64,000 nucleotides of DNA from Parasutterella excrementihominis (GCA_963614595.1 CAVECL010000001.1:60407-124406); one strand, 5' to 3'; shown: positions 2,716 through 60,648, numbered from the stretch's first letter. Notes: a model not told the origin generated them from the letters alone. Numbers and translations: made by a program.

Positions 2716-2802
2716 GCATTGATTATAACGGCCTTTGCTTCTTTCCAAGAGGCGATTATGCGTGTATTGTTTATTTTGCTTTCAGCAAAAAGGATTTTTG
2801 AA

Positions 2803-3981: not shown

Positions 3982-4905
3982 CTAGTCTCTATTTTCGTGC
4001 GGATGAAGAGATCCTGCGAGCCTGGCTCCATTTCGGTTTTTCTTTATCTCGCGGCTTCCCACATAAAAATAGGGATTGAACTTTTTCGAAACGACCTTGA
4101 GCCTCGCGAAGAGGGCTTCGCCCGGTTGGTTATTGAAATTCGCGGCGAAGGCCCTGAAATACTTGCCAGGATAAACCCCGTAGGCAAGAGGACGACCATC
4201 AACGTACTTAAAAGAAACCAGCGCGCACTCAGCGCGCAGCAAAGAAGCGATTTTCACAGCTTGAGACCTCGTGAAAGCATTGTCAAAAGTAGAGCTGACT
4301 AGCTTCCCGCCCTTCTCTTCCAAAACGCCAAAGCAGCGCTTCCCGATGGTGAGAGCGAAGAGAACAGGACCCTGAGCGTATTCTTCCACCACCCACGCGG
4401 AATCTTTCATCTTCTTAAGGATTTCGTTGAACTCAATGGGCGACACGCAAAGCTTCGGGGCAAAACCCTCATCGCTCTTTTTCCTTATATAAAAAGGATA
4501 GGCGATCCCCGCTTTATTGATGGAAGAAGAAAGAAAGGTGAAGAAGCCTTTTGGCTTTTCGTTCTTAAGATTCGGAAAACTGTAAAAGCCAGGATGAGCA
4601 ATTCCGTAGTCTTCCATCTTCTTGTAGAAAAGCCCAAGGTCTTGGCAATAGGCAGAGGAGTAGGGATGCCCGAAGCAAGGGATTCCTAGATTCATCGCAA
4701 GGTTCATCAAATAAGGATCCTCATCATAAAAATAGATGAAGCCGCAATCCAAATAAGAAGCGTAAAAATAGCGTTCCGCTTCCGCGAAAGAAAGCGCAGT
4801 GAGCGTTACTCCGCTGACTTTGGCGGAGGACAAAAGAAAATCGATTTCCTTTCGGAACGAAGCGTCTTTCTCTCTTGCGATGGAATAAACGAGGAATGCT
4901 TCCAT
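3982..4905 (-). CDS. ATP-grasp-like ligase (tentative; RimK/YheC-YheD-like)
   Basis: Start at Met9, with a GGAGA Shine-Dalgarno 5 nt upstream and 1 nt after the stop of the upstream gene. The central PFYIRKK.DEGF...VVEEYAQG...FKYVDG pattern resembles the ATP-grasp B-loop and large-domain motifs. Weak call by eye. Confidence 0.35.
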   Translation of the reverse strand: MEAFLVYSIAREKDASFRKEIDFLLSSAKVSGVTLTALSFAEAERYFYASYLDCGFIYFYDEDPYLMNLAMNLGIPCFGHPYSSAYCQDLGLFYKKMEDYGIAHPGFYSFPNLKNEKPKGFFTFLSSSINKAGIAYPFYIRKKSDEGFAPKLCVSPIEFNEILKKMKDSAWVVEEYAQGPVLFALTIGKRCFGVLEEKGGKLVSSTFDNAFTRSQAVKIASLLRAECALVSFKYVDGRPLAYGVYPGKYFRAFAANFNNQPGEALFARLKVVSKKFNPYFYVGSREIKKNRNGARLAGSLHPHENRD

Positions 4906-4906
4906 A

Positions 4907-5245
4907 TCAGTCTCCGTAATCGCTGCCACGCGATTTGTCTTCCACGAAGATCAGCAAGGGATCCGTGATATCCGCAATCTCACGGTAAACGAACCCTTCG
5001 CGGTCAATCCAAGGGTTCTCAAAGTCCGCGGTAAAGACAACCTTATGAAGCCGCTTGATTGTCTTATCGATCTCTTCCATGATCCTTTCAAAGGCCTCGG
5101 GCCGCTTTTCCTCAAAACCGAGCAAACCGTCATAAAAACCAGGCTCGACATAGAAAAGGTTTCCTTCCTCATCCGTATAAGCATGGACGAGATTGTTAAG
5201 AGGATCTTGGTAAGGCTTGTAAGAAGAGAATTCTGTGTAATCCAT
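4907..5245 (-). CDS. small acidic hypothetical protein, translationally coupled to the downstream ATP-grasp-like gene
   Basis: 112-aa ORF whose stop lies 1 nt before the start codon of the next gene. pI is clearly acidic. No known motif. Confidence 0.5.
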   Translation of the reverse strand: MDYTEFSSYKPYQDPLNNLVHAYTDEEGNLFYVEPGFYDGLLGFEEKRPEAFERIMEEIDKTIKRLHKVVFTADFENPWIDREGFVYREIADITDPLLIFVEDKSRGSDYGD

Positions 5246-6678: not shown

Positions 6679-7432
6679 CGTCTCCGCCTTCGACGCGTTC
6701 CCATTGCTTCAAAGGGATCACGCATTCCATCGGGAAGGCGATTCCCTTGCTTTCAAAGACTTCTTTGTAAGTGGACAAAGCAATCTCGGGGCGATTGCAG
6801 TCTTCGCTCAGATGAGCCAAATAGATTTTCTTTGTATGAGGGCCAAGGAACTCGCACATATAAGCCGCGGATTGCTCGTTTCCAAGATGGCCGTGGTTTC
6901 CTCTGATTCTAGCCCGCAAAGAGGCTGGCCGGCCCGAAAGGCGGAGCATCTCTTTGTCATAATTGGACTCAAAAAGATAATAGGTGTGGTCTTTTAGCAG
7001 CTTCTTGTTTTCTTTTTTGATGGTGCCGGTGTCAGTGACGTAAGCCATGGTTTCTTCCCCAAAAGAAAAAACAAAGTTCAGAGGATCGCTCGCGTCATGG
7101 CTAGAAGAAAAGGCCTTGACTTGGATCTCCCCGATTGAAAAGCCCGTCCCGGGACGGATTTCAACGTCGACATCGTCTGGGATCGTATCGCGCGTGGCAT
7201 AGGCTTTAACCCCGCGTTTTTTCAATAGATTCAAGGTTCCGACGTGGTCATGATGTTCGTGGGTAATAAGCACCGCGTCAATGTCTTCAATCGTTTTCCC
7301 CAAAGCCCCGAGGCCTTCTTTAAGCCGTTTCAAAGGAACGCCCATATCCACTTGGATCAAGGTCGAGCCACATTGAATTAAAGTCGCGTTGCCTTTGGAG
7401 CCGGAACCGATGAATTCGAAGCGTACGCTCAT
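6668..7432 (-). CDS. MBL-fold metallo-hydrolase (YycJ/WalJ-like)
   Basis: HxHxDH motif (THEHHDHVG) and downstream His/Asp ligands. Length 254 aa. Confidence 0.75.
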   Translation of the reverse strand: MSVRFEFIGSGSKGNATLIQCGSTLIQVDMGVPLKRLKEGLGALGKTIEDIDAVLITHEHHDHVGTLNLLKKRGVKAYATRDTIPDDVDVEIRPGTGFSIGEIQVKAFSSSHDASDPLNFVFSFGEETMAYVTDTGTIKKENKKLLKDHTYYLFESNYDKEMLRLSGRPASLRARIRGNHGHLGNEQSAAYMCEFLGPHTKKIYLAHLSEDCNRPEIALSTYKEVFESKGIAFPMECVIPLKQWERVEGGDDED

Positions 7433-8895
7433 TCGTTGTTTCCTAGCCTTCGCTCTTCCAAAGCGGCTTGTCTATCCTGAAATTCTTTCGAGGGATCGGA
7501 GAAACGAGAAAAGTTCTTTTGGAAGACGAGATTTACTTTCCCGGTCTTTCCCTTGCGGTTCTTGGCCACGATGACGGAGACTTCCGAAGTATCGCTCGTT
7601 TGGTTTTTCGGACCCACGGGTTCCTCATTCTCTTCGTCTTTGTTTCCGTACTTGTTCTTCTTGCCCACGGAAATGCCCATCTCGGTGTAATAGTCCGCGC
7701 GGTAAAGCAAAAGCACGATGTCCGCATCCTGCTCAATGGAGCCCGATTCACGCAAAGAAGAAAGGGTCGGAATCTTGTTGTCGCCTTTTTCCACGTCACG
7801 GTTTAGCTGCGCTAAGCAGATGACGGGGACGTTCAAATTACGCGCAAGCTGCTTCAAAGCGCCGGAAATATAAGAGACTTCCTGCTGCCTTTGGTCCATG
7901 GAGGGACGGTCTGTGGTCCTGATTCGGCCAAGGTAATCGATAACGATGAGGCCCAAATCCTGATGCTCTGCTTTCAGCTTCGTCGCTTTTGAGACGACAT
8001 CGCCTAATTTTGAGTCAGGGGAATCGTCGAGGAAGATGCTTTGCTTTGCGATTTCCTCGACGGCGCTGGCGATTTTAATCTTTTGGTTTTGGTTAAGATA
8101 GCCGCTTGTGATGTTCTCCCCTTCCACCGAGGAGCGAGAAGCGATAAGCCTCTCCATGATCTGTTCGTTGGACATTTCAAGGGAGAAGAACGCGACGGTG
8201 CATTTGCTCTTCAAAGCGGCGTTATAAGCGAAATTGAGCCCCAAGGCAGTTTTGCCAACGGAAGGGCGGGCGGCCAAAATGATCAAATCGCCTTTTTGCC
8301 AGCCATGGACGAAATCGTTTAAGGTGCGGAAGCCCGTGTCTATTCCGACAAGCCCGCGCTTGTCCGCGTTGGAGCTCTGCTGGATGCGGATGTTAACCGT
8401 TTTTGCGACGTCGCTTGCCTTGCTCATGCCCTTGACGTTGCGTCTAGAGGCAATCGCCGTGATTTTGTCGTTGGCGCTTTCGATAAACTCGCCAATATCT
8501 GGTACGCCCTTCGTGTAATCTTTTTGGATTCTCTCCGTCTCGAGCAAAAAATCGCGAAGGACCGCCTGCTCATGGACCATCTCAATGTAATGGTCAATGT
8601 TATCGGGCACGATGACCGCGTTCACCAAATCAAGCAAATAGGAAGTCGGAACTTCCTTGTCTTGTTTCAAGGAAATGAGCTCATCGATGACCGTTTGAAC
8701 ATCGACCGGACGTCCAGAGGTCGTGAGTTCCTTCATCGCTTTGAAGATAAGTTTGTTGCGCGGATCGACGTCCGAAAAATCCTCCGCCTCCAGCCCGCCT
8801 AAAGCAACGGAACAGGCGTCAGGGGCAATCAGCATCGCGCCTAAAACGGAGCGTTCTGCCTCAAGGTTATGCGGGAGTTCGGCGCCTTTGCTCAT
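7429..8895 (-). CDS. dnaB: replicative DNA helicase DnaB (DnaC in Bacillus nomenclature)
   Basis: N-terminal PHNLEAERSVLGAML, Walker A GARPSVGKT, and the RecA-like core. The C-terminal region carries a ~30-aa Lys/Glu-rich insertion and a ~20-aa tail. Confidence 0.9.
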   Translation of the reverse strand: MSKGAELPHNLEAERSVLGAMLIAPDACSVALGGLEAEDFSDVDPRNKLIFKAMKELTTSGRPVDVQTVIDELISLKQDKEVPTSYLLDLVNAVIVPDNIDHYIEMVHEQAVLRDFLLETERIQKDYTKGVPDIGEFIESANDKITAIASRRNVKGMSKASDVAKTVNIRIQQSSNADKRGLVGIDTGFRTLNDFVHGWQKGDLIILAARPSVGKTALGLNFAYNAALKSKCTVAFFSLEMSNEQIMERLIASRSSVEGENITSGYLNQNQKIKIASAVEEIAKQSIFLDDSPDSKLGDVVSKATKLKAEHQDLGLIVIDYLGRIRTTDRPSMDQRQQEVSYISGALKQLARNLNVPVICLAQLNRDVEKGDNKIPTLSSLRESGSIEQDADIVLLLYRADYYTEMGISVGKKNKYGNKDEENEEPVGPKNQTSDTSEVSVIVAKNRKGKTGKVNLVFQKNFSRFSDPSKEFQDRQAALEERRLGNNE

Positions 8896-9356
8896 TATTT
8901 TTCCTCGGAGATGTGGACATTGACGACGCCATAGACCTCGCCTTCATCGCCCTTGTAGAGTTCGATTTTCAAACGGGTGTACCCGAAAGCGTTCGCGGGG
9001 TATTTGTCGACGAACTTTCTCTTGTCGAGTTTGATGTTCCATTGCTTCTCCATGCCCTCGACGATCTCTTTGGAGGAGATGGTCCCGATCATGCGGCCAT
9101 TGCTCCCCATCTTCGCCTTGAATTCGACGTTGATGTGCTCAAGGCGCTTCGAAAGCTCCTCGGCCTCTTTCTTGAGCTCTTTTTGGCGGACGGCCTCTTC
9201 GGCGTTGGCTTTTGCGAGCTCTTTTTGGCTATTCGCCGTAGAAGGAACGGCCAAACCTTTGGGGATGAGATAATTGGCCCCATAGCCGTCAGAGACATTC
9301 ACGGTCTCCCCTTTGCGTCCGAGCTTGCGGACGTCAGCAGTTAAAATCACTCTCAT
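8895..9356 (-). CDS. rplI: 50S ribosomal protein L9
   Basis: MRVILTADVRKLGRKGETVNVSDGYGANYLIPKGLA is the canonical L9 N-terminus. Confidence 0.9.
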   Translation of the reverse strand: MRVILTADVRKLGRKGETVNVSDGYGANYLIPKGLAVPSTANSQKELAKANAEEAVRQKELKKEAEELSKRLEHINVEFKAKMGSNGRMIGTISSKEIVEGMEKQWNIKLDKRKFVDKYPANAFGYTRLKIELYKGDEGEVYGVVNVHISEEK

Positions 9357-11422
9357 TCTTTTGCTCCTTGTATATCTGATTTCGCTTCATTGAGATAAGT
9401 GTCTAACGTATCGAGCAAGCGGCTTTCCACCGTGGCAACAGGCAAATCATGGAAGGAGGCAGCCGCCATGCCGAAGTGCCCGCCGCCACCCATCTTCTCG
9501 CAGAGAAGCTGAACGTTAATCGAGCCATCGCTACGCGCGGAGACCTTCGTTTCGTTCGTTCCCGTTCTGCCGATGACGAAGCAGGCGTTGATGCCCTTAA
9601 GTTGCATCAATTGGTTCGCGACTTTGCTGATGGAAGCCTGATCAACGATGTCTTTTTCGTCCGAGACGCAGTAGACAACGCCGGTGTAAGGCGTGCGCAA
9701 GGTCGAAACGATGTTGGTGACCAGGGCATATTCTTCGTATTCGTCTTTGAGGAAGTCATCCGCCAGTTGGTTATCCGCGCCGAACTCTTTCAGAATCTCC
9801 GCGGCTTCGAAGGTTCGGATTCCCGTTGACTTCGACTTGAAGAAGTTGGTATCGAGGAAGATGCCTGAAAGCATCAAAGTCGCATATGTTTGACTGATTT
9901 CAATGCGCGGGTTCGCGGTTGCGTAATGGATGAATTCGGCAAGGATTTCTGAAGTGGAGGAAGCGGACGGGTCGACGTAAGTCAGAACCGGCTTTTCGAC
10001 AAACTGCTCGCCTCTGCGATGGTGGTCGATGACGATGGCCTTCGTCGCTTTTTCAAGGGCTTTTTGTCCCATGACGCGAGACGGGACGGATACGTCAACG
10101 ACGATGAATAAGGTCGAAGGGCGAACGGCATCCGCCGCCTCTTTTGGAGTCAAGGTCATATTGTCCAGCTCTGTTTTGGAGAAGCTTCCCGTGAATGCGT
10201 AACGCGTCTTCTTCTCGGTCAATTTAGGATCGAAGACAATCTTGCAGGGCACTTTGCAGAAGTCGCAGAGGGCTTTGACGCCGAGGCATCCCGCCAAAGC
10301 GTCCATATCCATATCGAGGTGGCCGGAAACGATGACGTTGCTCGCGCCGCGGATAATGCCGATGATGGAATCGGCGACGGAACGGAACTGCACGCGGCCC
10401 GTGTTTTCGATCGCCGCGGTTTTTCCGCCGTAGAATTTAAGGTCCTGCCCATATGTGGACACGACCGCCTGATCGCCGCCGCGGCTCATCGCGATGTCAA
10501 TCGCGTTAGACGCCATATCGTGAAGTTTGGTTACGTCCGGGAAATCGTGAGCCAAGCCCAAGGAAAGGGTTGGAATAACATTTTCCCCTTTGCCCACCGC
10601 GCGGGTTTTTTCTAGCACGGAGAAGCCATCGGCCTCCATTTTCTCAAGAGAAGCGTAATTCGTGACGATGAAATAAGAGTCGCTGCGGAAGCGGCGAAGC
10701 AAGATGCCGAACTCTTTCGCATAATCGAATATCACTCCGCGAACCTTGGTGATGACGTCGTTGTTGTCATCTTCGGCATTGCCGGCGATTTCGGAATAGT
10801 TATCCATCATCAAGATCCCGATGACGGGCGCCTGCTCCTTCGAATAATTGAAGATGGATTCATAATCGCTGGAGTCGCGGAAGATGAATAGATGCGCATC
10901 CGCGAGGTATTTCACGGAATAGGTCTTGCCATTCACTTCGATTTTGACCGTGGTATCCGCCGGAGCGTTTTTGATATCCCTCAAACCCGGTTGCCAATCC
11001 AAGATGTTCATGTCGAGCAAGTCGATGTTTCTTTCTCTGAAGAGGGTGTTGGTCCAAAGAACGACATCGGAATCATCCGTGACCACTAGACCAATCTGAC
11101 CGAATTTGTAGGCTTCCTGAATATCGTTGCCGATGATCGAGGCGGCATCCACGTCGTTTCTCTGGCGGATGCGTCCGATCAAAAGCTCGGAAGTCCACAT
11201 CACCAAAAGATTGAAGACGATCACGGCGGTGAAGGCGATGAACCAATAGTCGATCTTCATGAAGTCGCGGAAACCTTCGGGCCAATCAAGGTAATAAAGC
11301 CCGACCGATCCGCCCAAGAGGACGAGTTCGACAATGATTACGATAAAACTGCCGACTCTGGTGCGGTGCAAAGCGGCGCTAATGGAATTTGATTTGCGGG
11401 GTTTTTGACTGGCCATGGGCAA
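9353..11422 (-). CDS. gdpP: cyclic-di-AMP phosphodiesterase GdpP (YybT): TM-PAS-degenerate GGDEF-DHH/DHHA1
   Basis: Two N-terminal TM helices, a DHH motif (VIDHHRRG), and the DHHA1 GGGH motif (GGGGHFGMAAA). It keeps the conserved position upstream of rplI-dnaB. Confidence 0.85.
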   Translation of the reverse strand: MPMASQKPRKSNSISAALHRTRVGSFIVIIVELVLLGGSVGLYYLDWPEGFRDFMKIDYWFIAFTAVIVFNLLVMWTSELLIGRIRQRNDVDAASIIGNDIQEAYKFGQIGLVVTDDSDVVLWTNTLFRERNIDLLDMNILDWQPGLRDIKNAPADTTVKIEVNGKTYSVKYLADAHLFIFRDSSDYESIFNYSKEQAPVIGILMMDNYSEIAGNAEDDNNDVITKVRGVIFDYAKEFGILLRRFRSDSYFIVTNYASLEKMEADGFSVLEKTRAVGKGENVIPTLSLGLAHDFPDVTKLHDMASNAIDIAMSRGGDQAVVSTYGQDLKFYGGKTAAIENTGRVQFRSVADSIIGIIRGASNVIVSGHLDMDMDALAGCLGVKALCDFCKVPCKIVFDPKLTEKKTRYAFTGSFSKTELDNMTLTPKEAADAVRPSTLFIVVDVSVPSRVMGQKALEKATKAIVIDHHRRGEQFVEKPVLTYVDPSASSTSEILAEFIHYATANPRIEISQTYATLMLSGIFLDTNFFKSKSTGIRTFEAAEILKEFGADNQLADDFLKDEYEEYALVTNIVSTLRTPYTGVVYCVSDEKDIVDQASISKVANQLMQLKGINACFVIGRTGTNETKVSARSDGSINVQLLCEKMGGGGHFGMAAASFHDLPVATVESRLLDTLDTYLNEAKSDIQGAKE

Positions 11423-14028: not shown

Positions 14029-15069
14029 TTAAACTCTGCGAGAACTGCGAATGATTCCCTGTGTTTTTTCGCTGTGGCCGCAATGAACGCATACGCAGTC
14101 ATAGAGATTTTCGATCGAGCTCTCTTCTGTGTCGTACGTTCCGGTGTAATGCTCGTAAATGTCTTCGCTTCCTTTTGCTTCGCCTATGACGTCTCCTCTA
14201 TCGGTGGATATCGTGTAGGTTGTTTCTCTTGTCCCCACTTTCCTCATTCGATCCTCGAACCCGACCCCATCCCACGTGGTTGTTTTACTGCTGATAAGCG
14301 TCTCTTCGCACCTTCCATGGCATTCTGGGCATCTATGGGCGGTTATGGAGCAAAAATCAAAGGCATTGATGACGGCTATTAGGCCTAAAAGAATGCAAGA
14401 ATGGATGTAATAAACCAAAGAAACGCCGAGAAAATCGAGATAGAAATAGGCTAAGGCGAATGCTCCGCCGAGTAAGACCAATGCGGTGAGTTCGAGGTAG
14501 CGGTTCGTCCGCAAAGGTTTGCCGAGGTTAAACATAAAATTGATGAAGATTCCGCCGAGGATCGAGTACATGTAAAGCAAGACGTAATGCATCCATATGT
14601 CGATGGGGTTGAGGATATCGTTGAAGTAATATCCCGCGAAATAGAAAATCGCGGCTAGGTAAAGCAAAACAACTCCCCATTTAACAAACATCAGCGGGGA
14701 AGGCGTTTTGAATTTCTGCACTTTGTATTTTTTACTTGCTTTCTTGAATTTCCGGTCGCTCTTTTCCTTTATTTTGGAGAACAGCAAATCCGACAACACG
14801 ACAAGCAACGCGATAAGCAAAAGGAGGATGAGGAAGGCCGCAAATCCCCCAAGCAAGAAAATTCCAGGGATGCGAAAAATGGCGAGGCCAGCATCTTCCT
14901 GGGACTGGTAAATAAAAAGGGCGATTTGCTGATAAAAAGGGTAGGAATAAAATTTTTGGCTTTGTGAGGTGACGAAATAGAAAAAGGCACTCACTAAAGT
15001 CACCAAGACGGAGATCACCGCTAATCCGCCTGCTAAGATGGCAGCTATTTCATGCCTATGCGCTTTCAT
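14029..15069 (-). CDS. hypothetical polytopic membrane protein with C-terminal cytoplasmic Cys4 zinc-ribbon domain
   Basis: A strong AAGGAGG Shine-Dalgarno 6 nt upstream. About 8 TM helices. The C-terminal region carries CPECHGRC...CVCVHCGH. Confidence 0.7.
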   Translation of the reverse strand: MKAHRHEIAAILAGGLAVISVLVTLVSAFFYFVTSQSQKFYSYPFYQQIALFIYQSQEDAGLAIFRIPGIFLLGGFAAFLILLLLIALLVVLSDLLFSKIKEKSDRKFKKASKKYKVQKFKTPSPLMFVKWGVVLLYLAAIFYFAGYYFNDILNPIDIWMHYVLLYMYSILGGIFINFMFNLGKPLRTNRYLELTALVLLGGAFALAYFYLDFLGVSLVYYIHSCILLGLIAVINAFDFCSITAHRCPECHGRCEETLISSKTTTWDGVGFEDRMRKVGTRETTYTISTDRGDVIGEAKGSEDIYEHYTGTYDTEESSIENLYDCVCVHCGHSEKTQGIIRSSRRV

Positions 15070-15560: not shown

Positions 15561-17429
15561 TTAGGCTGCTTTAACCGTGATTCCCGGCCTGACGCAATAC
15601 CCTTCATAATTGACTGCCGACGTATAAGCAATATAGCCATAGGGGTCGACTTTATTAGCCGAATACGAACTGTGCGCATCTGGCGAACGCGTCCAATAAT
15701 AGCCATTCCGATAGTTGGCGTTTTGACCGGTCTCGATTATCGCTCCACTTGCTATAGCGTAGTCCGTGACCTTGGAACCCAACGAGAATTTGGCGGTTTT
15801 GTAGTCTTGGGCGCTTAAAAGATAGACATAATCATTCGTGCCGCCGGAAGCGTATTCATTTGTTGTCCACCAAGTCGTTTTGGCCGAATTGTCCACATAG
15901 ACTTTTTGCAGCTTAGGAGTGATTGGGAAGGCTAAAGATCTGAAATCGCCAGTGAGCCATTTTCTGATCCCCGATTTTTCATAATTATTCGCGTAGTACC
16001 CATTTTTCTTATCACTATAGTTTTCGTTGTATATATGCGTATCGAGAAGCATCCTTGAAACGAGCGAATATTGATTCCCGTCGGATGATGTAACGGTCCA
16101 TTCGATGGGTTCAACCTTGAACCAATATGAGGTGCCGCTTGAGATCTTCGTCCCGTCGTCGAAGGTATAGCGGCTGTTAAAGGGTTTCGCGGTTTTCTTC
16201 GCGTAGTAGCTGCCGTCTAAGAGATACCAGCCATTTCCCTCGGGGGAAGTCAAAGCGTCCAAGGAGGCCAGCAACGAAGAATCGGAAACATAGCTTTGAG
16301 GATATTGCCCATAAAGCACAGAATCGACGCTGACGCTCGAAGAGTCTTCGACATCGGCAGAATAGCCGCAGACACTGCAAACCTTCGTCACCTCGTTAGA
16401 CGAGTTCAAATCCAATATGTTCCTGAAAGCGTGGTCGCTTTTCTCGACTTTCTCGTCGCATTCAGAGCAAGAGTACCAGTGGCTCGTCGCGTCGCTTGTA
16501 TAAGAATCATTCAAGGTATGGCCATGGGGCAAGGTCAACGTCTCGGCCCCGGCGCTGATCTCATAGGTAAAGGTATAAGTCGTGACGTTGTTATACGCAT
16601 CCTTATCGAAAGAGTATCTCACCATCTTGGTAACCTTCCCATCCTCGAAAAAAATAGACCAGCTTTCTATGATGTCACCCTTCGGATTGACGTTGTAACC
16701 GCAATCAACTTCATCATAATCACGATAAGTGTTGGCAACGCTAAGCCGAGAGTTGAAGAAATAAGCGTTCAGGTCAAAGGGGTTGAATTGATCGATCTTC
16801 TTGCCGGTGTCCTCGCCCTTTGTCCAATATGATTCGTCTTCGCTGTCTTTGCTGGTTGTCTTGGAATAGACATAATACTTCGCGTCGCTATCTTGGCCTG
16901 ATTTGGTGTAATAGTATTCGCGCGTGTTTCCGTCGCCCTTCCTCTTTGAGTAGACGATGTCTCCGTTTTTGACGTAGATATCATCATCCTCGATGAGTGT
17001 GACGCCGGTGCTTTTGTAATAGACATCCGCCTTGTAAGTCAAAGTGAAATCGCCTTCGAACTTAAAAGCGTTATCCCAGTCTTCATCGCTGACGCCCGTG
17101 GTGTAGCTGACTTCGTCTTTGACATAGCGGCAGTAGGCGCATCTATAGCCCTTCGTCCCGGCCTCCTTTTCCGTGGCTTTCTTGATCACATCCTTGTGGT
17201 CTCCGAAAGTGTGGGCTTCCACCTTCTTCTCGCCGCAAGAGCATTCTCTCCAATGGTTGTTCTCGTCGCTCTGATAGTTCCCGAAAGAATGGACGTGCGC
17301 GCTAGAAGAGCCAGAGGAAGTCGGCTTTTCCTCGGATGAAGTGCCTCCCTGGAGGCTGCAAGAGCCCAACGCCATCGTTAGAAGCGTCGAAACGCCTAGC
17401 CCGAACAAGATGCTGTGTTTTGTTTTCAT
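15561..17429 (-). CDS. large secreted lipoprotein with duplicated His/Cys motif modules and a C-terminal YWTRSP...GVRPxIT domain
   Basis: Signal peptide plus lipobox (LALGSC|S). Two repeats of H-x-H-x11-HW-x2-C-x-C...H-x-F followed by C-x2-C (AHVHSFGNYQSDENNHWRECSCGE / PHGHTLNDSYTSDATSHWYSCSEC). Ser/Asp/Tyr-rich beta-type middle region. AAGGAG Shine-Dalgarno upstream. Confidence 0.7.
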   Translation of the reverse strand: MKTKHSILFGLGVSTLLTMALGSCSLQGGTSSEEKPTSSGSSSAHVHSFGNYQSDENNHWRECSCGEKKVEAHTFGDHKDVIKKATEKEAGTKGYRCAYCRYVKDEVSYTTGVSDEDWDNAFKFEGDFTLTYKADVYYKSTGVTLIEDDDIYVKNGDIVYSKRKGDGNTREYYYTKSGQDSDAKYYVYSKTTSKDSEDESYWTKGEDTGKKIDQFNPFDLNAYFFNSRLSVANTYRDYDEVDCGYNVNPKGDIIESWSIFFEDGKVTKMVRYSFDKDAYNNVTTYTFTYEISAGAETLTLPHGHTLNDSYTSDATSHWYSCSECDEKVEKSDHAFRNILDLNSSNEVTKVCSVCGYSADVEDSSSVSVDSVLYGQYPQSYVSDSSLLASLDALTSPEGNGWYLLDGSYYAKKTAKPFNSRYTFDDGTKISSGTSYWFKVEPIEWTVTSSDGNQYSLVSRMLLDTHIYNENYSDKKNGYYANNYEKSGIRKWLTGDFRSLAFPITPKLQKVYVDNSAKTTWWTTNEYASGGTNDYVYLLSAQDYKTAKFSLGSKVTDYAIASGAIIETGQNANYRNGYYWTRSPDAHSSYSANKVDPYGYIAYTSAVNYEGYCVRPGITVKAA

Positions 17430-17792: not shown

Positions 17793-18584
17793 TCAACGGG
17801 TCAAGCCTTTCCGCTCGGCGATGATATCAAGCTCCATCTGGTAGTCCAACGCCCATTCGTAGCTCTTGCAGAAAACCCCGCTGTAATTGCCTTCTCCCGT
17901 CTTGAGGAAATCCCAGTAATCGCAATGAATGCGGCTTTTAAGGAGAGTGAGTTGGGCCCTAGAGAAGCTCACGCAGCTGAAGTTGTATTCGCTTAGGGTC
18001 CTCCTTAGCCGCCACACCGCGTCGCGGTAGAGCCTCTTGGCGTTGTCCAAAGGGACGTCCGGCCAAAGTTGGGAGATCGCATCGCTCATCTCGAGGATTT
18101 TGCCATTATAGGCAATCAGCAAAGCGAAGAGCTCCTTGGATTTCGCGCTGGAGAAGCGGATGGCCTCCCCCTCGAGGAAACAATCGAAGCTATTGAACAT
18201 CTTCACCTCCATGTAGGAGCAGCTGTCACTGATCAAATCGATGTATTGCTTCACGCTTAAGAAGGTATAGGGCTTGTAGATGAAACCGAGGACGCTTGAT
18301 TTTATCTCTGAAGGCAAGTCCTTTTCCGTCATTTTGATCCCGGTCACGAAGACGATCTTCATCCCCGGATGGATGTGGAGGATCTTTTTGACGAGGTCGA
18401 TCCCGTTTATCCCCGGCATATTGATGTCAATGAAAGAGGCGCTCACCTCATTATGATTCACGTAATCCAGAATCTGCTTCTCGTCGTCTTTGAAAAATCT
18501 GCATTCCAGGTTGTCCAAAGAGACGATCTCCTTCAGGAATATCTGCAAAGAGGAGATCTCGTCGTCCACCGCAATCACTTTCAT
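17793..18584 (-). CDS. response regulator: receiver domain with a C-terminal winged-helix-like (OmpR/trans_reg_C-like) output; not LytTR or AraC
   Basis: MKVIAVDDE...D(IN)MPG(IN)G receiver signature. The C-terminus has a KELFALL...VW...RLRRTL pattern. Its start codon lies 2 nt after the kinase stop. Confidence 0.75.
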   Translation of the reverse strand: MKVIAVDDEISSLQIFLKEIVSLDNLECRFFKDDEKQILDYVNHNEVSASFIDINMPGINGIDLVKKILHIHPGMKIVFVTGIKMTEKDLPSEIKSSVLGFIYKPYTFLSVKQYIDLISDSCSYMEVKMFNSFDCFLEGEAIRFSSAKSKELFALLIAYNGKILEMSDAISQLWPDVPLDNAKRLYRDAVWRLRRTLSEYNFSCVSFSRAQLTLLKSRIHCDYWDFLKTGEGNYSGVFCKSYEWALDYQMELDIIAERKGLTR

Positions 18585-18585
18585 A

Positions 18586-20565
18586 TCAGGCCTTCCTTTC
18601 CTTGGGGAGAGTTATCTTCACCTTCGTTCCCTCATTAATCCCGCTTTTCACTTCCACCTTGGCGTTGAGCAGCAAAGCGAACCTCTCCCGCGCGTTCTTG
18701 ATGCCTGAGGAATTCTCTTTGACCTGCTTCGAGTCGAAGCCGACTCCGTTGTCGCTGATTTCCACATAGATTGAGGTTTCGTCCTGGTAGGTCGATATCT
18801 CGATGCGCCCGCCTTCTTTCTCGTTCACCTTGCTGTATTTGATCGCGTTCTCGACGAAGGGCTCGATCGAGAGGACGGGCACTTCGAAGTCTTGGACGTC
18901 GATGTCGTAGAGGACTTCGAATCGCTTCTCCGTCCTTAGGTTTTTAAGCTCCACGAAATTATAGACGTTGTCGAGCTCCTTCTCGAAGGAAATGAGGTTC
19001 GAGGCGGAGACGTCGACGGCGTAGCGGAGGTAATCGGCGAGCAAAGACACCGCCCGGTCGCCCGTCCCTTCGTCTTGGTGGTAGAGGGCCTTGATCGTCC
19101 CCAGGCAATTGAAGACGAAATGGGGCTTGATCTGGTCGCGCAGGACCAAAAGCCTCAAATCCTTGTTCTGCAGCTCGGACTTCAGCTCGTTCATCGCGTG
19201 GCGGTAGGTCCTCACGATGAAGGCGACGTAAATCGCAAGGAACAAAACGATGACGAGGAAAAGATAGGCCAGCAATATCTTGGATGAGGAGAGAGGGAAG
19301 AGACTAGAACAAGAAGAGACGATGCATAGTTCCATCCCCAGGACGGAATAGAAGACGCATTTGGTGAAAACCCCCGTAATGTCGAGCTGATTCTTGAGCT
19401 TGGAGAAGTAGCTGATCTTGATTAGCAGATAGATATATACGAGAGCGTAAACCCCATAAGCGACAATCGGCAGCCTCAAGGGGATCAAAGAGGCGTAAAG
19501 AATGGTGGCAAGCCCCGCGAAAGCCACCCCCAGTGCAACCAGTTTTGTTGGGAGCTTCGATCGATAGGTGTATTGAAAGAACTGGAGGATGGAAAGAAGG
19601 AAGAGGCAGAAGAAAAGGAACCCGATAATCCCGAAAATGAAGGGGGGCAAGTAACAGCCGAAACTCATAAGGATGGAATTCATCAGGGGCGAGAAGAGCG
19701 CCATAAAGAAGAGGGATCCCGCCATGTTCACCGTGTAGATCGTGGAGTCGTAGATCCTGAAATAAGAGACGAGTTCCACCACGAATAAAGCCAAGTAGCA
19801 GACGAGGACGATATAAGAGAGCGAAGTAACCACGTTTTGCTCCGAATCATGGTAGGAGACGTTATAGAACTTCGGCGCGAAGGAGAGTCCTCCCACGAAG
19901 TTATATCCTACTTCGATGATCACATTAGCCTTCCCGCTTTTCTTTGCTTCATAGACCTCATCGGTTTGGTAGGAAAAGCCCGGGGAGCTTTCGGAGAAAC
20001 TCTTCCCCACCGTTCCTGCCCCGGCGATTTTCTCTCCTTCGACATAGACGGCGAAGGCGACGTCGACAGGCTCTTTTTTGAAAGTGATCTTCGTTCCAGC
20101 GGAAAGCTCGATTTGGGTGAGATAAGAAGCATATCCATAGAAAGGGAGGCTGCCACCGCTTTTCTCCTTTACCCCAAACCAGGTATGGGGCAAAGCGATC
20201 TCTGAATCAGGCTCCCTTTTCGATAGGTCGACCTGATCGCTCACTAGAAGCGTGTTGTAGTAAAGCCCATAAACACCAGTCGAGCTCTTTATGATCGTCT
20301 CTTCTTCGCTCGGGCGAGCGTTATCCGCAAAGGAGGAAATTAGAGCTGAAAAAGCCCCTCCAGCGAAAAGGAGGGCGTAAAGAGTGATGCGCAGAATTAT
20401 GGATGTGAGCTTAGCCGGGCTCTTCGATGGTCCGCCTTTCCTTTTCCCGAGCTTAGCAGCGTTAGCCTCCTCAAGCTCGCCGTTGCTCGTTTTGGGAAAT
20501 GCCCTTTTCATAGGATAATTATACCAAAAAACATCGATGAAATATACGTTTTCCGCGTATACCAT
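18586..20565 (-). CDS. sensor histidine kinase with 7TM-receptor architecture: ~200-aa extracellular domain, 7 TM helices, His_kinase (LytS/YesM-type), HATPase_c
   Basis: FVFNCLGTIKAL (H-box region of PF06580-type kinases) and ENAIKYS...ISDNGVGF (N and G1 boxes). One TM helix precedes the extracellular domain and 7 TM helices follow it. AGGAAA Shine-Dalgarno 7 nt upstream of ATG 20565. Confidence 0.8.
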   Translation of the reverse strand: MVYAENVYFIDVFWYNYPMKRAFPKTSNGELEEANAAKLGKRKGGPSKSPAKLTSIILRITLYALLFAGGAFSALISSFADNARPSEEETIIKSSTGVYGLYYNTLLVSDQVDLSKREPDSEIALPHTWFGVKEKSGGSLPFYGYASYLTQIELSAGTKITFKKEPVDVAFAVYVEGEKIAGAGTVGKSFSESSPGFSYQTDEVYEAKKSGKANVIIEVGYNFVGGLSFAPKFYNVSYHDSEQNVVTSLSYIVLVCYLALFVVELVSYFRIYDSTIYTVNMAGSLFFMALFSPLMNSILMSFGCYLPPFIFGIIGFLFFCLFLLSILQFFQYTYRSKLPTKLVALGVAFAGLATILYASLIPLRLPIVAYGVYALVYIYLLIKISYFSKLKNQLDITGVFTKCVFYSVLGMELCIVSSCSSLFPLSSSKILLAYLFLVIVLFLAIYVAFIVRTYRHAMNELKSELQNKDLRLLVLRDQIKPHFVFNCLGTIKALYHQDEGTGDRAVSLLADYLRYAVDVSASNLISFEKELDNVYNFVELKNLRTEKRFEVLYDIDVQDFEVPVLSIEPFVENAIKYSKVNEKEGGRIEISTYQDETSIYVEISDNGVGFDSKQVKENSSGIKNARERFALLLNAKVEVKSGINEGTKVKITLPKERKA

Positions 20566-21952: not shown

Positions 21953-21986
21953 CCATTAAATAAAGGGGAACTCATTGGAATTCCCC
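21953..21986 (-). terminator. Rho-independent terminator after the acyl-AMP ligase-ACP-thioesterase operon
   Basis: GGGGAAUUCC-aaugag-UUCCCC hairpin on the minus strand, followed by UUUAUUUAAU. Confidence 0.5.
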
Positions 21987-22019: not shown

Positions 22020-22718
22020 TTACCTTTTGAAGCCAAGACGGATGAAGAACGAGGCGGACGAAAAAACATAAACATTGTCTTCCTCGCCAAAGGAAACGGG
22101 GATTTCCTGCCCAAGAGGAATCTCTTTTTTGTAAGCAACTTCTAGCAAAGAGGGTTCATGAGTTTGTAGGAAGCCCATGGGAATCAGATCCTCCGCTTCA
22201 TCCAAATATGCCGTGTTGTTCATGTGACCATTTAGGTCGCAATCCCTCCATTTCGCCGCAAAAGTGGCTTTTTTTGTTAATTCGAAGCCCTTAAACGGGA
22301 ATTGGAAGCCGACTTCATCGCCTTCCGATTTGCCGTCAATCACGATTCCATGCGCCTCAGGATCGATCATCGAACGGCTCTTCTCATCGATGAGAGTCCA
22401 GGCTGCGCTAGAAGAAACAAGCAATTCGCCCGAAGAGGAATAGATCTTGCAATGGCGAGGAAACAAGAAAGGAATTCTTTCGCCGGGATAAGCAACGATT
22501 TGAACAGACTCGTCATATTCGGGTAGGCGGTTGATGACCAATCTTTGTTTGCCGATAACCCAAAGCAGCCCCCTATCCAAGGTTTTCTCTCGCGGGTAGC
22601 CCAGATTTTCAGTGTCTTCAATTGAAATCTCCTGAAGAAATTTCAAAAGGGAGGAAAGGCGAAGCTTCCTAGTGGGGTCACAATGCTCCGTGAGAATTTT
22701 TATGCTTTTCGATAGCAT
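22020..22718 (-). CDS. acyl-[acyl-carrier-protein] thioesterase (tandem hotdog fold, FatA/B-like, PF01643-type)
   Basis: Length 232 aa. The second hotdog carries DCDLNGHMNNTAYLD, matching the D-x-D-x-N-x-H-V-N-N catalytic signature of acyl-ACP thioesterases. Confidence 0.7.
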   Translation of the reverse strand: MLSKSIKILTEHCDPTRKLRLSSLLKFLQEISIEDTENLGYPREKTLDRGLLWVIGKQRLVINRLPEYDESVQIVAYPGERIPFLFPRHCKIYSSSGELLVSSSAAWTLIDEKSRSMIDPEAHGIVIDGKSEGDEVGFQFPFKGFELTKKATFAAKWRDCDLNGHMNNTAYLDEAEDLIPMGFLQTHEPSLLEVAYKKEIPLGQEIPVSFGEEDNVYVFSSASFFIRLGFKR

Positions 22719-22721
22719 GGG

Positions 22722-22976
22722 TCACTTCTTTTTGGCCAAGCGGAACGAAATCTCGTCAACCAGCGCGGAAAAAGTGGAAAGCTTGGCCCATTTATTTTGG
22801 GGGATTTTTATATCAAAGGCGGACTCGATTTGAGTCATGAGATAAATAAAGGACATTGAGTCAACGCTAGCATCGGTGTTGATGTTGGAAGACTCATTGA
22901 TTTCAACCCCGTCTAAATCCGGCACGCTGCTATGAATAATGCCGATGGCTTTTTCTTTGATCTCTTCGCGGGTCAT
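22722..22976 (-). CDS. acyl carrier protein (dedicated ACP)
   Basis: 84 aa, acidic, with the phosphopantetheine-attachment motif DLDGVE...DASVDSMSFIYL (DSM in place of DSL). Confidence 0.65.
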   Translation of the reverse strand: MTREEIKEKAIGIIHSSVPDLDGVEINESSNINTDASVDSMSFIYLMTQIESAFDIKIPQNKWAKLSTFSALVDEISFRLAKKK

Positions 22977-22995
22977 AGGTTACTCCTTATCTAGT

Positions 22996-24339
22996 TTATA
23001 TCATCTTTTGCAAAGCCCAACGCTTTATTTTCCCTGTTTGGGTGCGCGGCAAAGGCCCAGGGAAATAAAGCACAACCGCAATGCGATTTGAGTAAGGGAC
23101 GGTTTCATTGAAAGCGGTTATAGAAGAGGAATAGTTGTCCTGCAAGGTGGCTTTGCCAAAAGCCAGGACTATTTGCTCCTTGCTGTTTTTCGCAATTGCA
23201 AAATCCTTGTCGCCCCCCAGGAAAGCGGCGAGCTTGCTTTCGTATTCAGGGCAATAGATCTTGGTTCCGTCATCCAAAACGAGAATGTCCTTTTTCCGCC
23301 CTTTGATATGGAGAAGCCCTTCGGAATCGAAATATCCTAAATCGCCCGTAGAAAGAATTCCGTCATGAAGCACTTCTTTTGTGGAAGCATCATCTTTGTA
23401 ATAGCCGTTCATCAAAACGGATTTGCAGTCCAGCAAAATCTCACCATCTGAGTTAAGAGCCACCTTAACGTCAGGGCAAATCGACATGGCCCGCGGGTCT
23501 TTGCCAATCGATAGAGCAACCCCGGAACTCGTTTCCGTTAAGCCATATCCAAAGCAAACTCGTATGCCCTGACTTGAAATCAATTGAAGAACGGAGTCAG
23601 AACAGTCGCCCGCGCCGATAAGAACCAATTTCAATTCAGGATTAAATAAATGTTTTGAGGCAAAGAAAGCCGCCATTTGGGGAACTAAGCTTACCGTGGT
23701 TGGCTTGTAATAGGCAAAATCCCCAAACATTTGTTTAATCCCGCGGCTTAAAGCGACGCAGGCGCCGCAAGAAAGACCCCAAAGTAAGGAGCACACAAAG
23801 CCAAATACGTGGTTGAAGGGCAAGCAAGAATAAAGAACGTCATCCGGGGAAAGGGGCAGTAAAGAAGCTCCATTATAAGCGGACGAACATAAGCTCGCTT
23901 CGCTTAGGCAAACAGCTTTATTGCTGCTCGTCGTGCCCGAAGTAAAAAACAAAATCTTCCCATCCTGCGCTGCTTCTTTGGTGACTAAGGAATCCTCCAG
24001 CGCGTCCTTGAGCTCACGCGGTCCAAGAATAAAATTCACATCGGCGGCTTTGACTTTGCCTTTTAGAGAGTCAAGATCTTCAGAAGGAGAAAGCAGAGCA
24101 ATCTGTCTACGTTTCGAGGCATAGGCGAAGACAGCTAAGATGGATGATAAACTCCCATCCATCAAAATCCCCGCAGTTCCCGTTTCTTTTATGGGGAATG
24201 CATAGATTTTGCGGATTAATTCCGCATAAGTGAGATATTTTTTAACGCCGTTCTCTTCATAAATCAAAGCATGGGAATCCTGCTTTTGGTCAAGCAGCAT
24301 AGCCAAGAATGAAGAATAGCGTTTCCTTAATCCGCCCAT
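22996..24339 (-). CDS. short AMP-dependent ligase (ANL superfamily; acyl-AMP ligase / acyl-ACP synthetase-like)
   Basis: A3 core FFTSGTTSSNKAV, A5 GYGLTETS, A7/A8 STGDLGYFDSEGLLHIKGRKKD, and A10 lysine PRTQTGKIKR. At 447 aa it is shorter than typical acyl-CoA synthetases. Confidence 0.75.
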   Translation of the reverse strand: MGGLRKRYSSFLAMLLDQKQDSHALIYEENGVKKYLTYAELIRKIYAFPIKETGTAGILMDGSLSSILAVFAYASKRRQIALLSPSEDLDSLKGKVKAADVNFILGPRELKDALEDSLVTKEAAQDGKILFFTSGTTSSNKAVCLSEASLCSSAYNGASLLPLSPDDVLYSCLPFNHVFGFVCSLLWGLSCGACVALSRGIKQMFGDFAYYKPTTVSLVPQMAAFFASKHLFNPELKLVLIGAGDCSDSVLQLISSQGIRVCFGYGLTETSSGVALSIGKDPRAMSICPDVKVALNSDGEILLDCKSVLMNGYYKDDASTKEVLHDGILSTGDLGYFDSEGLLHIKGRKKDILVLDDGTKIYCPEYESKLAAFLGGDKDFAIAKNSKEQIVLAFGKATLQDNYSSSITAFNETVPYSNRIAVVLYFPGPLPRTQTGKIKRWALQKMI

Positions 24340-24453
24340 AGAACAATGATATTCGAATTGATATCGCCATATCGGTAATATTATCCCGTTTTACTTTTAT
24401 TCTTTGAATAATGTCTTAAAATAAGACCAAATCTAAAAAGGAGACCATGATAA

Positions 24454-25908
24454 ATGGACAAAAACATCAGAATCGCCATTATCGGTGGCGGCCCAGCCGG
24501 TCTTTCGGCTGGTATGTATCTCGAAAAGAAGGGATACGACAATTACGTCATCTATGAGAGAAGCGGCCGCGTCGGCGGAAAGTGCTTCTCCCCCACCTTC
24601 AACGGCAAGCGTTACGAAATGGGCGCCATTATGGGCGTTCCTTCCTATTATGCCATCTCCGACATCGAGAAATTTGCCGGCGTTGAGCATAAAGGACCAG
24701 TGCTAGCCCGCAACTACAAGTTCCCCGACGGACGTATTGACTACCGTTGGGACACGGCTTCCGCCATGAAGAGCCCCGCCAAATACTTCTTCAAGCATCC
24801 GAAAGCCGCTCTTCACCTTAAAAAACTTCAGAAGCAGATTAAAAAGTTCGGCGAAATCCTCGCCACCACCTATAAAGGCTATGATCTGACCGGCCACATC
24901 GGCGTCAGTGAGGGCCGCTATGAAGGCTACGCCGTCACCCCGGGCCGCGAACCGGTTTCCGGAACCAACCCGAACCTCAAAGATCTTTCGATGCCATTCA
25001 AAGATTTCTGTGAGAAAGTCGGTTGCCCGCTGGTCCAGGAAGTTTGGATTCAGCCCTTCACTTCCTTCGGCTACGGCTTCTTCGACGAAATCCCCGCCGC
25101 TTATGTTCTTAAGTATCTCGATTTCCAGACGATGATGAATTTCGTCAAGATGAACCTCTGGACATGGGAAAACGGCACGCAGTCGATTTTCGAAGCCCTG
25201 AACGATCACTTGAAGCACCCTGCCGTCCTTAATAGCGATGTCACTAAAGTCGTTCGCGGCGACAAAGTCACCCTCACCGTCAACGGCAAAGAAGAAGTCT
25301 TCGACAAGATCATCATCACCTGCCCGATTCAAATCGCAACCGAGAAGAACCCGCTCAACAATCCGAACGCCATCTCACTCGACAAATGGCTCGACGTCAC
25401 CGACGACGAAAAGACGCTCTTCTCCAAAATCGACTATGAACGTTATGACACCCAAGCCTTCCAGGTTGAGCCCGACAAGTATCCGGATGTCTCTTACTAC
25501 ATCGTCGACAATATGGTCCCGGAGAGAATGCCTCACGTCATGATCTACTATCATCGTTGGGCGGATGAACCCGATCAGCCGATCGTGAGCTATACGCTCC
25601 GCCATCACAAAACCTACAACGACGGCAAGGAAATCCCTTACGAAGGAACCGAGAAGATCATCACCGAGGATATGAAACAGCTCGGCGCCCCGATCAGAGT
25701 CGTCGATGGAAAAGAAGCTATTCTTACCCGCTATCAAGCTTATTACTTCCCACACGTCTATTCCGAGGACTACGCCGCAGGATGGTATGAGAAAGTGGAA
25801 GCCATGCAAGGCAAGAACAACACCTTCTACGCCGGCGAAATCATGTCCTATGGCGACATGGACGAGACCTGCGAATACTCGCACGACCTCGTCGAAAGAT
25901 TCTTCTAA
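24454..25908 (+). CDS. FAD-dependent oxidoreductase with amine-oxidase/PPOX-type fold; possibly a polyenoic fatty-acid isomerase-family enzyme
   Basis: N-terminal Rossmann IAIIGGGPAGLSAGMYL...ERSGRVGGKC. 484 aa. Assignment to the PAI-like subfamily rests on recalled similarity and on the divergent lipid genes; not verified. Confidence 0.65.
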   Translation: MDKNIRIAIIGGGPAGLSAGMYLEKKGYDNYVIYERSGRVGGKCFSPTFNGKRYEMGAIMGVPSYYAISDIEKFAGVEHKGPVLARNYKFPDGRIDYRWDTASAMKSPAKYFFKHPKAALHLKKLQKQIKKFGEILATTYKGYDLTGHIGVSEGRYEGYAVTPGREPVSGTNPNLKDLSMPFKDFCEKVGCPLVQEVWIQPFTSFGYGFFDEIPAAYVLKYLDFQTMMNFVKMNLWTWENGTQSIFEALNDHLKHPAVLNSDVTKVVRGDKVTLTVNGKEEVFDKIIITCPIQIATEKNPLNNPNAISLDKWLDVTDDEKTLFSKIDYERYDTQAFQVEPDKYPDVSYYIVDNMVPERMPHVMIYYHRWADEPDQPIVSYTLRHHKTYNDGKEIPYEGTEKIITEDMKQLGAPIRVVDGKEAILTRYQAYYFPHVYSEDYAAGWYEKVEAMQGKNNTFYAGEIMSYGDMDETCEYSHDLVERFF

Positions 25909-26003
25909 TCCGCGCCACAATGAGCTCGCGAAAGCGGGCTCTTTTTCTTTACGAAAAAACCACCTTTTTGCGGTGGTTTAAGTAAAAGCTTTGCAGAAGC
26001 GCC

Positions 26004-57265: not shown

Positions 57266-57334
57266 AGCAAAAAGGATTATACCTGTTTCCTTTTCCTTAT
57301 AAAGAAAAGGCGCCCTTTCGAGCGCCTTGGTTCG

Positions 57335-57934: not shown

Positions 57935-57937
57935 GAT

Positions 57938-60035: not shown

Positions 60036-60052
60036 GCGGGCACAACGAAAGC

Positions 60053-60190
60053 TTACGCGGAAAGGCGAGCGCGGCCCTTGGCGCGACGGCGGGCCAAGAC
60101 GCGACGTCCACCGGCGGTGGACATGCGAGCGCGGAACCCGTTGACGTTGATGTGCTTCCTTTTGGAAGGCTGATACGTTTTCTTACCCAT
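60053..60190 (-). CDS. rpmH: 50S ribosomal protein L34
   Basis: [45 protein letters not shown], 45 aa. Not in the ORF track because it is under 60 aa. Confidence 0.9.
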
Positions 60191-60640: not shown

Positions 60641-60648
60641 AACCGCTT

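Follow-up and report, generated by a model that had tools for sequence, protein, structure and literature searches.

The stretch of DNA examined here, hereafter the window, comprises 64,000 nucleotides of Parasutterella excrementihominis (GCA_963614595.1 CAVECL010000001.1:60407-124406) and harbors a compact cluster of four genes with a predicted role in fatty acid metabolism. Three of the genes lie on the minus strand as an operon. They encode a compact ANL-superfamily adenylating enzyme of 447 amino acids (22996-24339), presumed to be a fatty acyl-acyl carrier protein (ACP) ligase; a dedicated ACP of 84 amino acids (22722-22976), with a phosphopantetheine site at Ser40 in a DSM motif; and, from the last gene, a tandem-hotdog acyl-ACP thioesterase of 232 amino acids (22020-22718). 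The fourth gene, on the plus strand (24454-25908), encodes a 484-amino acid protein dependent on flavin adenine dinucleotide (FAD), which by sequence and fold is a homolog of the polyunsaturated fatty acid isomerase (PAI) family. A divergent control region of 114 bp (24340-24453) is common to the ligase operon and the isomerase gene. Terminator-like hairpins lie directly 3' of both outer genes. The one behind the thioesterase gene (21965-21986, minus strand) marks the site at which relatives carry a pair of reductase genes, and the one behind the isomerase gene (25922-25951, plus strand) consists of a hairpin of eight pairs, six of them GC (25922-25941), followed by a T-run, TTTTTCTTTA. The original prediction, made from the sequence of the window alone, had described these four open reading frames (ORFs) and their spacer, and their coordinates, strands and lengths are all borne out. 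The motifs it listed for the ligase, the carrier protein and the thioesterase are present and are kept across approximately 70 homologs from related loci. None of the four proteins reaches the cut-off of any curated NCBIfam model; thus, within the NCBIfam library, they belong to no named family.

The flavoprotein is a true homolog of Cutibacterium acnes PAI. Its only strong match among PDB sequences is 2B9W, over the full length (E = 2.8e-118), an entry titled 'CLA-producing fatty acid isomerase from P. acnes', where CLA denotes conjugated linoleic acid. The second-best match (E = 4e-7) covers the Rossmann N-terminus only. The protein contains the motif IIGGGPAGL and is assigned by Pfam to Amino_oxidase (65.6 bits) and NAD_binding_8. 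A fold search with an AlphaFold (AF2) model of the protein (pLDDT 79.9, pTM 0.86) again placed 2b9w at the top (E = 4.8e-43; TM 0.81/0.92, the higher value on the PAI side), with the second-ranked match at E = 3e-17, and the model shows the three-domain architecture of PAI. Membership in this family had been put forward as a possibility, and the protein does fall with PAI rather than among amine oxidases or phytoene desaturases. Residues R86, F205 and F230 are the equivalents of R88, F168 and F193 of PAI, reportedly channel-entrance and gating residues in the PAI structure of 2006; they are kept in 94, 96 and 96 of 96 family members, respectively. Identity to C. acnes PAI is approximately 50-55%, or 44% in a three-dimensional alignment, and the window protein is 60 amino acids longer. 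The region around residues 147-176, a predicted beta-hairpin that is conserved in long-form homologs, is far longer than in C. acnes PAI. This insertion was considered as a marker of carrier protein docking and was rejected, because short-form homologs (421-426 amino acids) that lack it also occur in complete clusters.

The association of the four genes is conserved well beyond the window. A scan of one genome per species returned 553 relatives of the isomerase, and the best 80 of these were examined with up to 10 kb of flanking sequence on each side (related records carry labels beginning with L). The flanks were searched by tblastn with the ligase, carrier protein and thioesterase of the window, together with two extra proteins first met beside a 79%-identical isomerase homolog. 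Linkage was counted for the 52 species-level loci with adequate flanks, for genes within 10 kb of the isomerase homolog. The ligase, carrier protein and thioesterase (the triad) occur beside the PAI homolog in 48 of the 52 loci, 35 with both extra genes and 13 without them. The remaining loci hold the two extra genes only (one locus) or, in Eggerthellaceae, the ligase and carrier protein with no thioesterase (three loci). The usual layout is divergent, with thioesterase, carrier protein and ligase genes on one strand and, on the opposite one, the isomerase gene with the two extra genes behind it; the ligase gene is upstream of and divergent from the isomerase gene in 70 of the 80 loci. In two loci (L037 and L045) the six genes share one orientation, as single-operon forms. 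The triad genes are closely packed, the median gap being 3 nt from ligase to carrier protein gene and -4 nt from carrier protein to thioesterase gene. The labels of the cluster-bearing records span Bacilli, Clostridia and Coriobacteriia, the flanking genes are wholly different between lineages, and the identities of the three triad proteins track that of the isomerase (r = 0.81-0.87). Approached from the other side, two ligase homologs were looked up among the best 120 matches listed, all close relatives, and both are divergent from an isomerase homolog.

The linkage of the triad to the isomerase is therefore not due to chance; the four proteins are inherited and arranged as one unit. The suspicion that the triad might be a free-standing part of housekeeping lipid turnover is not borne out, given its presence beside the PAI homolog in nearly all loci and in different genomic contexts, and given the two loci reached from the ligase. 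As had been observed for the window, there is no condensing enzyme among the conserved cluster genes, nor is there an acyltransferase. The linkage at the center of the original prediction is thus real; what went unrecognized is the descent of the four-gene form from a six-gene cluster that includes a reductase pair. Regarding the records themselves, near-identical or closely related clusters in the metagenome-assembled genome (MAG) records L015-L036 are filed under incompatible names (Lachnospiraceae, Erysipelotrichaceae, Bacteroidales, Bacteroides uniformis, Roseburia hominis, Alistipes onderdonkii, Escherichia coli, Sodaliphilus and Hallerella), and the '_cleanbin_' labels appear to be unreliable. 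The organism of the window is itself most likely a bacterium of the gut or rumen that belongs to Bacilli and resembles Erysipelotrichales.

The two extra proteins are a CrtI/CrtISO-superfamily flavoprotein of approximately 520 amino acids (4REP, 1.5e-8; carotenoid isomerase model, 76 bits) and a BenC/PaaE-type NAD(P)H/FAD/plant-type [2Fe-2S] reductase, FNR-like, of approximately 400 amino acids (1KRH, 1e-23). To judge from these matches, the pair looks like an NAD(P)H-driven saturase. A tblastn search across the 64-kb window found no homologs of either. The nearest relatives of the window cluster share its chromosomal location, flanked by rpsF-ssb-rpsR and lysS. In three of them (L017, L019 and L020; 84-85% isomerase identity) rpsF is separated from the thioesterase gene by the CrtI-like and FNR-like genes, whereas in the window and in L015 and L016 the thioesterase gene abuts rpsF. 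Since relatives at the same site keep the pair, it was probably lost from the rpsF site in the lineage of the window; a copy may lie elsewhere in the genome. Absence of the reductases is seen again in further branches of the isomerase tree, such that the triad accompanies the isomerase with no reductase pair nearby in the window clade, L026-L036, L012/L046 and L027/L028. Loci of the converse type, which have isomerase and reductase but no triad, are rare (L008/L009 and L090). The window cluster is best explained as derived, with the reductases gone, from a six-gene cluster found widely among Firmicutes of the rumen and gut.

Some of the clusters contain further genes. A TetR regulator is added in some and an MFS_2 or MatE transporter in others. 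Many related clusters also include a 900-930-amino acid Fe-S flavoprotein with Fer4, Fer4_20 and Pyr_redox_2 domains (GltD-like), directly after the thioesterase or the reductase and accompanied by HypA and by CobW/HypB-type metallochaperone GTPases. Regions of this kind are found at L096 12870-15951, L100 11315-15800, L037 8052-10847, L039 16508-16849 and L040 18058-18729. The Fe-S flavoprotein might act as another reductase or form an electron-input module.

PAI of C. acnes itself is encoded outside any such cluster. Its gene, on a human skin metagenome contig (L095, 1346-2620), is flanked by genes for a 303-amino acid protein without a Pfam match, an acetyltransferase and gyrB, and no ligase, carrier protein, thioesterase or reductase gene was found within the approximately 10 kb available. 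The homologs nearest to it, with identities of 63%, 57% and 54% and all of the short form, reside in complete clusters with TetR, and it is nested among cluster-associated homologs. This placement suggests that C. acnes PAI is a horizontally acquired fragment of the cluster, although a midpoint-rooted neighbor-joining tree is suggestive rather than rigorous. A second orphan is found in the rumen fungus Anaeromyces robustus (MCFG01000271.1; L098, 8001-9431). The fungal protein is 64% identical to the window protein, has no cluster partners, and in the same tree nests in an Erysipelotrichaceae-type bacterial clade that bears the cluster; it looks like a bacterium-to-fungus transfer of the isomerase alone. 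Only four positions are invariant in cluster-associated isomerases yet changed in both orphans, and these positions carry no basic-patch signal, in a comparison that is confounded by clade structure. C. acnes PAI thus resembles the window protein in its family, both sequence and fold, in its FAD-binding Rossmann N-terminus and in R88, F168 and F193, and differs in being a lone gene rather than part of a cluster. PAI-type enzymes isomerize free linoleic acid from the cis-9,cis-12 to the trans-10,cis-12 form with no net redox change; the activity and regiochemistry of the window protein are predictions from this relationship.

Judged by its sequence, the thioesterase is a member of the FatA/FatB-type family with an intact catalytic motif. 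Both Pfam domains are recognized well above their cut-offs (PF01643, Acyl-ACP_TE N-terminal, 65.6 versus 23.7 bits; PF20791, C-terminal, 53.8 versus 21). Among solved structures, the putative oleoyl-ACP thioesterase 2OWN is the closest relative (E = 2.8e-15); others are 4GAK and 2ESS. In plant FatB, catalysis depends on Asp, Asn and His residues and a downstream Glu. The window protein has the corresponding motif D161-x-N163-x-H165-x-N-N168 and E199, of which D161, N163, H165, N168 and E199 are each present in at least 95% of 67 cluster homologs.

The carrier protein scores 26.8 bits against PP-binding (PF00550; cut-off 20.8) and has its attachment site at D39-S40-M, the DS motif being present in 75 of 75 aligned cluster ACPs. 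It falls below all cut-offs for housekeeping ACP equivalogs (33-41 versus 66-84 bits; for example, 41 versus 70 and 33.5 versus 70.45). Its net charge is -3, as compared to -15 and -17 for the housekeeping ACPs of E. coli and Bacillus subtilis, and the 18 residues from the first DS mostly include three acidic residues in cluster ACPs versus seven or eight in those references. By its equivalog scores and its lack of a strongly acidic helix II, the window carrier protein is not a housekeeping ACP of type II fatty acid synthesis. Being only weakly acidic, it is probably orthogonal to the enzymes of lipid synthesis.

The ligase is classed as an ANL adenylate-forming enzyme of no named subfamily. 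AMP-binding (PF00501) is matched with 94 bits, and the motifs A3 (FFTSGTTS), A5 (GYGLTETS), A7 (TGDLG), A8 (GRKKD) and A10 (K437) are conserved. All 92 of its NCBIfam matches are far below cut-off; MenE is the best (124 versus 330 bits), fatty acyl-AMP ligase (FAAL) reaches 68 versus 600, and E. coli-type Aas models reach approximately 70 bits against cut-offs of 1221-1349. The AF2 model (pLDDT 90.5) has the two-domain ANL fold, and its nearest structures are coenzyme A (CoA) ligases with 17-22% identity. The fold search was set aside as evidence on the acceptor, since its result is generic, comprising CoA ligases only. The carrier protein is the putative acceptor, on the sole basis of the adjacent carrier protein gene, which is often separated from the ligase gene by a few bases or overlaps it. 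The N-terminal KRYSSFLAML of the 447-amino acid protein is conserved in homologs. In a public MAG annotation (L001-L004, 4543-5814) the ligase begins at an internal TTG and is 423 amino acids long. The 24 upstream residues are conserved across homologs, which supports the 447-amino acid start and indicates that the deposited protein is truncated. The exact 447-amino acid sequence is not among the best 120 matches listed, the nearest of which is 91% identical.

The control region of the window is somewhat shorter than the median divergent spacer of 133 bp (73 divergent loci). It contains a ribosome binding site, AAAGGAGA, ahead of the isomerase ATG and a promoter-like site for the minus-strand ligase operon at 24408-24380. 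Just downstream of the latter lies GATATCGCCATATCGGTA (24360-24377), an imperfect inverted repeat, GATAT-CGCC-ATATC, that is found once in the 64-kb window; a repeat search reported no inverted repeats of at least 8 nt. Among the six nearest species-level relatives (L015-L020), whose spacers otherwise diverge, every one has the core CGCCATATCGGTA and five have the full GATAT-N4-ATATC repeat; L019 and L020 have the fuller form CCGATAT-CGCC-ATATCGG. The element is absent from more distant clusters. Given its position relative to the promoter-like site, it is a reasonable operator candidate for the subclade of the window only. A palindromic operator had been proposed for this spacer, and that proposal stands in part: ATTCGAAT is present at 24351-24358 and the conserved footprint overlaps the proposed site, but CGATATCG is absent, the window having TGATATCG at 24359-24366. 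A TetR gene 20 kb away in the window (44371-44982) was considered as the regulator of the cluster and rejected; its product has only the helix-turn-helix region in common with the cluster-linked TetR proteins of L096, L097 and L102 and is not orthologous to them.

The window as a whole is origin-proximal. It contains dnaA (60631-62016) and dnaN (62168-63292) on the plus strand, with the gap near 60036-60630 likely to be oriC, and yidC, jag and mnmE on the minus strand at 55937-59701. Also present are dnaB (7429-8895), a gene for a GdpP-type c-di-AMP phosphodiesterase (9353-11422) and a tmRNA gene (1769-2172). A minus-strand ORF at 15561-17429 encodes a lipoprotein-like protein of 622 amino acids with a C-terminal DUF6273 and repeated Cys/His-rich segments, and adjoins a minus-strand His_kinase (PF06580)/response regulator pair (17793-20565). 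Four further ORFs (430-1608, 2719-3915, 3982-4929 and 14029-15069; 315-398 amino acids) find no counterpart in Pfam, even with E relaxed to 0.01.

The family identity of each protein, the intact catalytic motifs, the conserved linkage and the deleted reductase pair are matters of observation. They may be brought together in a tentative reading that falls a little short of probable, in which the four genes constitute one conserved module for exogenous polyunsaturated fatty acids that are loaded on the carrier protein, isomerized there and released. The ligase would adenylate a free acid of the linoleic type and pass the acyl group to the Ser40-phosphopantetheine of its private carrier protein. 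The PAI-family flavoenzyme would then convert the tethered methylene-interrupted cis,cis diene to a conjugated diene, and the thioesterase would hydrolyze the product, freeing the carrier protein. In most relatives, the CrtI-like flavoprotein, fed by the NAD(P)H/FAD/[2Fe-2S] reductase, would saturate one double bond before release, a biohydrogenation. With the reductase step lost, the lineage of the window is expected to stop at conjugated acids. The role of the carrier protein as acceptor for the ligase, the substrate, the regiochemistry (trans-10,cis-12 or other, which cannot be read from sequence) and, above all, isomerization on the carrier protein are what we infer. Because there is no acyltransferase or condensing enzyme in the cluster, a cycle of loading and release that spends ATP is sensible only if the chain is altered while tethered. 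The order of loading, isomerization and release is favored because loading and release would otherwise be pointless and because the triad stays with the isomerase where the reductase pair is not nearby.

Several points weigh against isomerization on the carrier protein, and some of them favor the main rival, in which the isomerase, together with the reductase in relatives, would condition free acids and the ligase would load the less toxic product for phospholipid synthesis encoded elsewhere, and the thioesterase would be either a safety valve or a proofreader for unmodified chains. The equivalents of R88 and F193, which we take to bind the free carboxylate, are conserved in the window protein along with that of F168. 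The isomerase stands alone in C. acnes and Anaeromyces; thus, the fold works without a carrier protein. Eggerthellaceae clusters have the PAI homolog, ligase and carrier protein but no release enzyme. C. acnes PAI is also reported to use free fatty acids only (PMC5442254). In addition, some loci have neighbors of a lipid-scavenging type, including MFS_2 transporters, DegV, GDPD, PI-PLC and esterases. Other objections bear on the carrier-bound scheme alone. The nearest structural relatives of the ligase are CoA ligases, so the carrier protein is no more than its putative acceptor, and the purified CLA reductase of Butyrivibrio, which may or may not be related to the cluster proteins, reduces free conjugated acids (PMC2654759). 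The thioester is far from C9-C13 and gives isomerization no chemical help; therefore, any role of the carrier protein would lie in handling, solubility or segregation from lipid synthesis, not in activation. Nevertheless, conditioning of free acids followed by salvage is rather unlikely. The thioesterase, present in 48 of 52 loci and packed tightly on the carrier protein gene, would set up a futile cycle; the acidic helix II that marks partners of lipid synthesis enzymes is missing from the carrier protein, and there is no linked acyltransferase. Moreover, Firmicutes normally activate exogenous acids via fatty acid kinase.

It could instead be that the PAI homolog is a reductase, for example kin to the 53-kDa CLA reductase of Butyrivibrio, or an isomerase of another regiospecificity or substrate such as linolenate or hydroxy acids, in which case the chemistry would not be formation of trans-10,cis-12-CLA. 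The limited identity to C. acnes PAI, the far longer 147-176 region and a regiochemistry that sequence does not disclose leave room for this. The Butyrivibrio enzyme has reportedly been purified and sequenced, and its reported size fits proteins of 460-484 amino acids. However, the putative gating residues are conserved, the TM score is 0.92 on the PAI side, and C. acnes PAI is nested among the cluster-associated homologs. The dedicated reductase pair beside the PAI homolog in most clusters also argues that isomerization is the natural role of the latter, which makes a different chemistry improbable. Finally, the triad might be a housekeeping unit of the AasS type that recycles exogenous fatty acids and adjoins the flavoprotein gene by accident, as could be imagined from the position of the window cluster among housekeeping genes (rpsF-ssb-rpsR and lysS) near the replication origin. 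This is very hard to reconcile with linkage that recurs in 48 of 52 loci, three classes and unrelated contexts, with the single-operon forms, with the independently sampled ligase homologs (n = 2) that lie beside PAI homologs, and with the failure of the ligase to match any curated Aas or FadD model.

The carrier-bound scheme has parallels among known systems. The JamA/JamB/JamC and TtuA/B/C cassettes comprise an acyl-ACP synthetase, a dedicated ACP and a tailoring desaturase that acts on the tethered fatty acyl chain. The likeness of these cassettes to the window cluster is one of logic, in that a free acid is placed by an ANL ligase on a dedicated carrier protein for modification at a distant part of the chain. 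In both cassettes, however, the modifying enzyme is a membrane di-iron desaturase and the product passes into polyketide synthase/nonribosomal peptide synthetase (PKS/NRPS) assembly, whereas the window cluster has a soluble flavin isomerase, joined by a flavin reductase in relatives, and a FatA/B-type thioesterase that would free the acid. The gene content of the window cluster fits a cassette of ligase, private carrier protein and modifying enzyme, and action on a carrier-bound chain is proposed by analogy. AasS, Aas and AasN/AasC, soluble or membrane acyl-ACP synthetases that recycle exogenous fatty acids, are similar in that acyl-ACP is presumably formed by an ANL enzyme at the expense of ATP from free fatty acid. 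Those enzymes serve the housekeeping ACP and phospholipid synthesis, whereas the window unit has a private, atypical carrier protein and a coupled thioesterase and is tied to an isomerase.

Conjugated acids are also produced by unrelated machinery. The CLA-HY/CLA-DH/CLA-DC/CLA-ER system of Lactiplantibacillus plantarum is likewise multi-gene, converts linoleic acid to conjugated and partly saturated acids, and is thought to detoxify polyunsaturated fatty acids. Its enzymes are a hydratase, a short-chain dehydrogenase, an acetoacetate decarboxylase-like isomerase and an enone reductase. The window cluster has no such domains, and the L. plantarum route works on free acids by way of hydroxy and oxo intermediates and uses no carrier protein. 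The linoleate isomerase and CLA reductase of Butyrivibrio share with the six-gene cluster the overall chemistry proposed here, namely isomerization followed by reduction of the conjugated diene. The Butyrivibrio activities were defined biochemically on free acids, and reviews do not regard the genes behind them as settled. Butyrivibrio strains with the isomerase but no reductase occur naturally, such as MDT-5, in which linoleate is isomerized but not hydrogenated, and provide a parallel to the lineage of the window.

The original prediction held that the arrangement is not a described operon type, and full-text literature searches found no published description of the cluster; subscription-only papers were beyond their reach, and a prior description may exist. 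In reviews up to August 2026, the hosts and enzymes of biohydrogenation are poorly resolved (PMC13464031), the characterization of isomerase sequences is further along than that of reductases (PMC13188719), and PAI homologs have been used only as single-gene BLAST markers in rumen MAGs (PMC13188719, PMC10019597). A more far-reaching possibility, itself on the unlikely side, is that the full cluster, with thioesterase, carrier protein and ligase genes divergent from the isomerase and the CrtI-like and FNR-like reductases and often with TetR and the large Fe-S flavoprotein, provides the genetic basis, long missing, for biohydrogenation by Firmicutes of the rumen and gut. The acid would be held on a private carrier protein while it is isomerized and saturated, and C. 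acnes PAI would be the horizontally acquired orphan of the pathway.

Biohydrogenation in the rumen and gut sets the trans and conjugated fatty acids of milk, meat and the gut lumen, and its trans-10 route causes milk-fat depression. The cluster offers clonable candidates for the isomerase, the conjugated-diene reductase and the electron donor, and points to a cycle on a private carrier protein as a new, predicted feature. It also predicts that lineages without the reductase pair, such as that of the window, would end at conjugated acids, whereas others would proceed to monoenes. Metagenomic data might then be read as actual pathway capacity.

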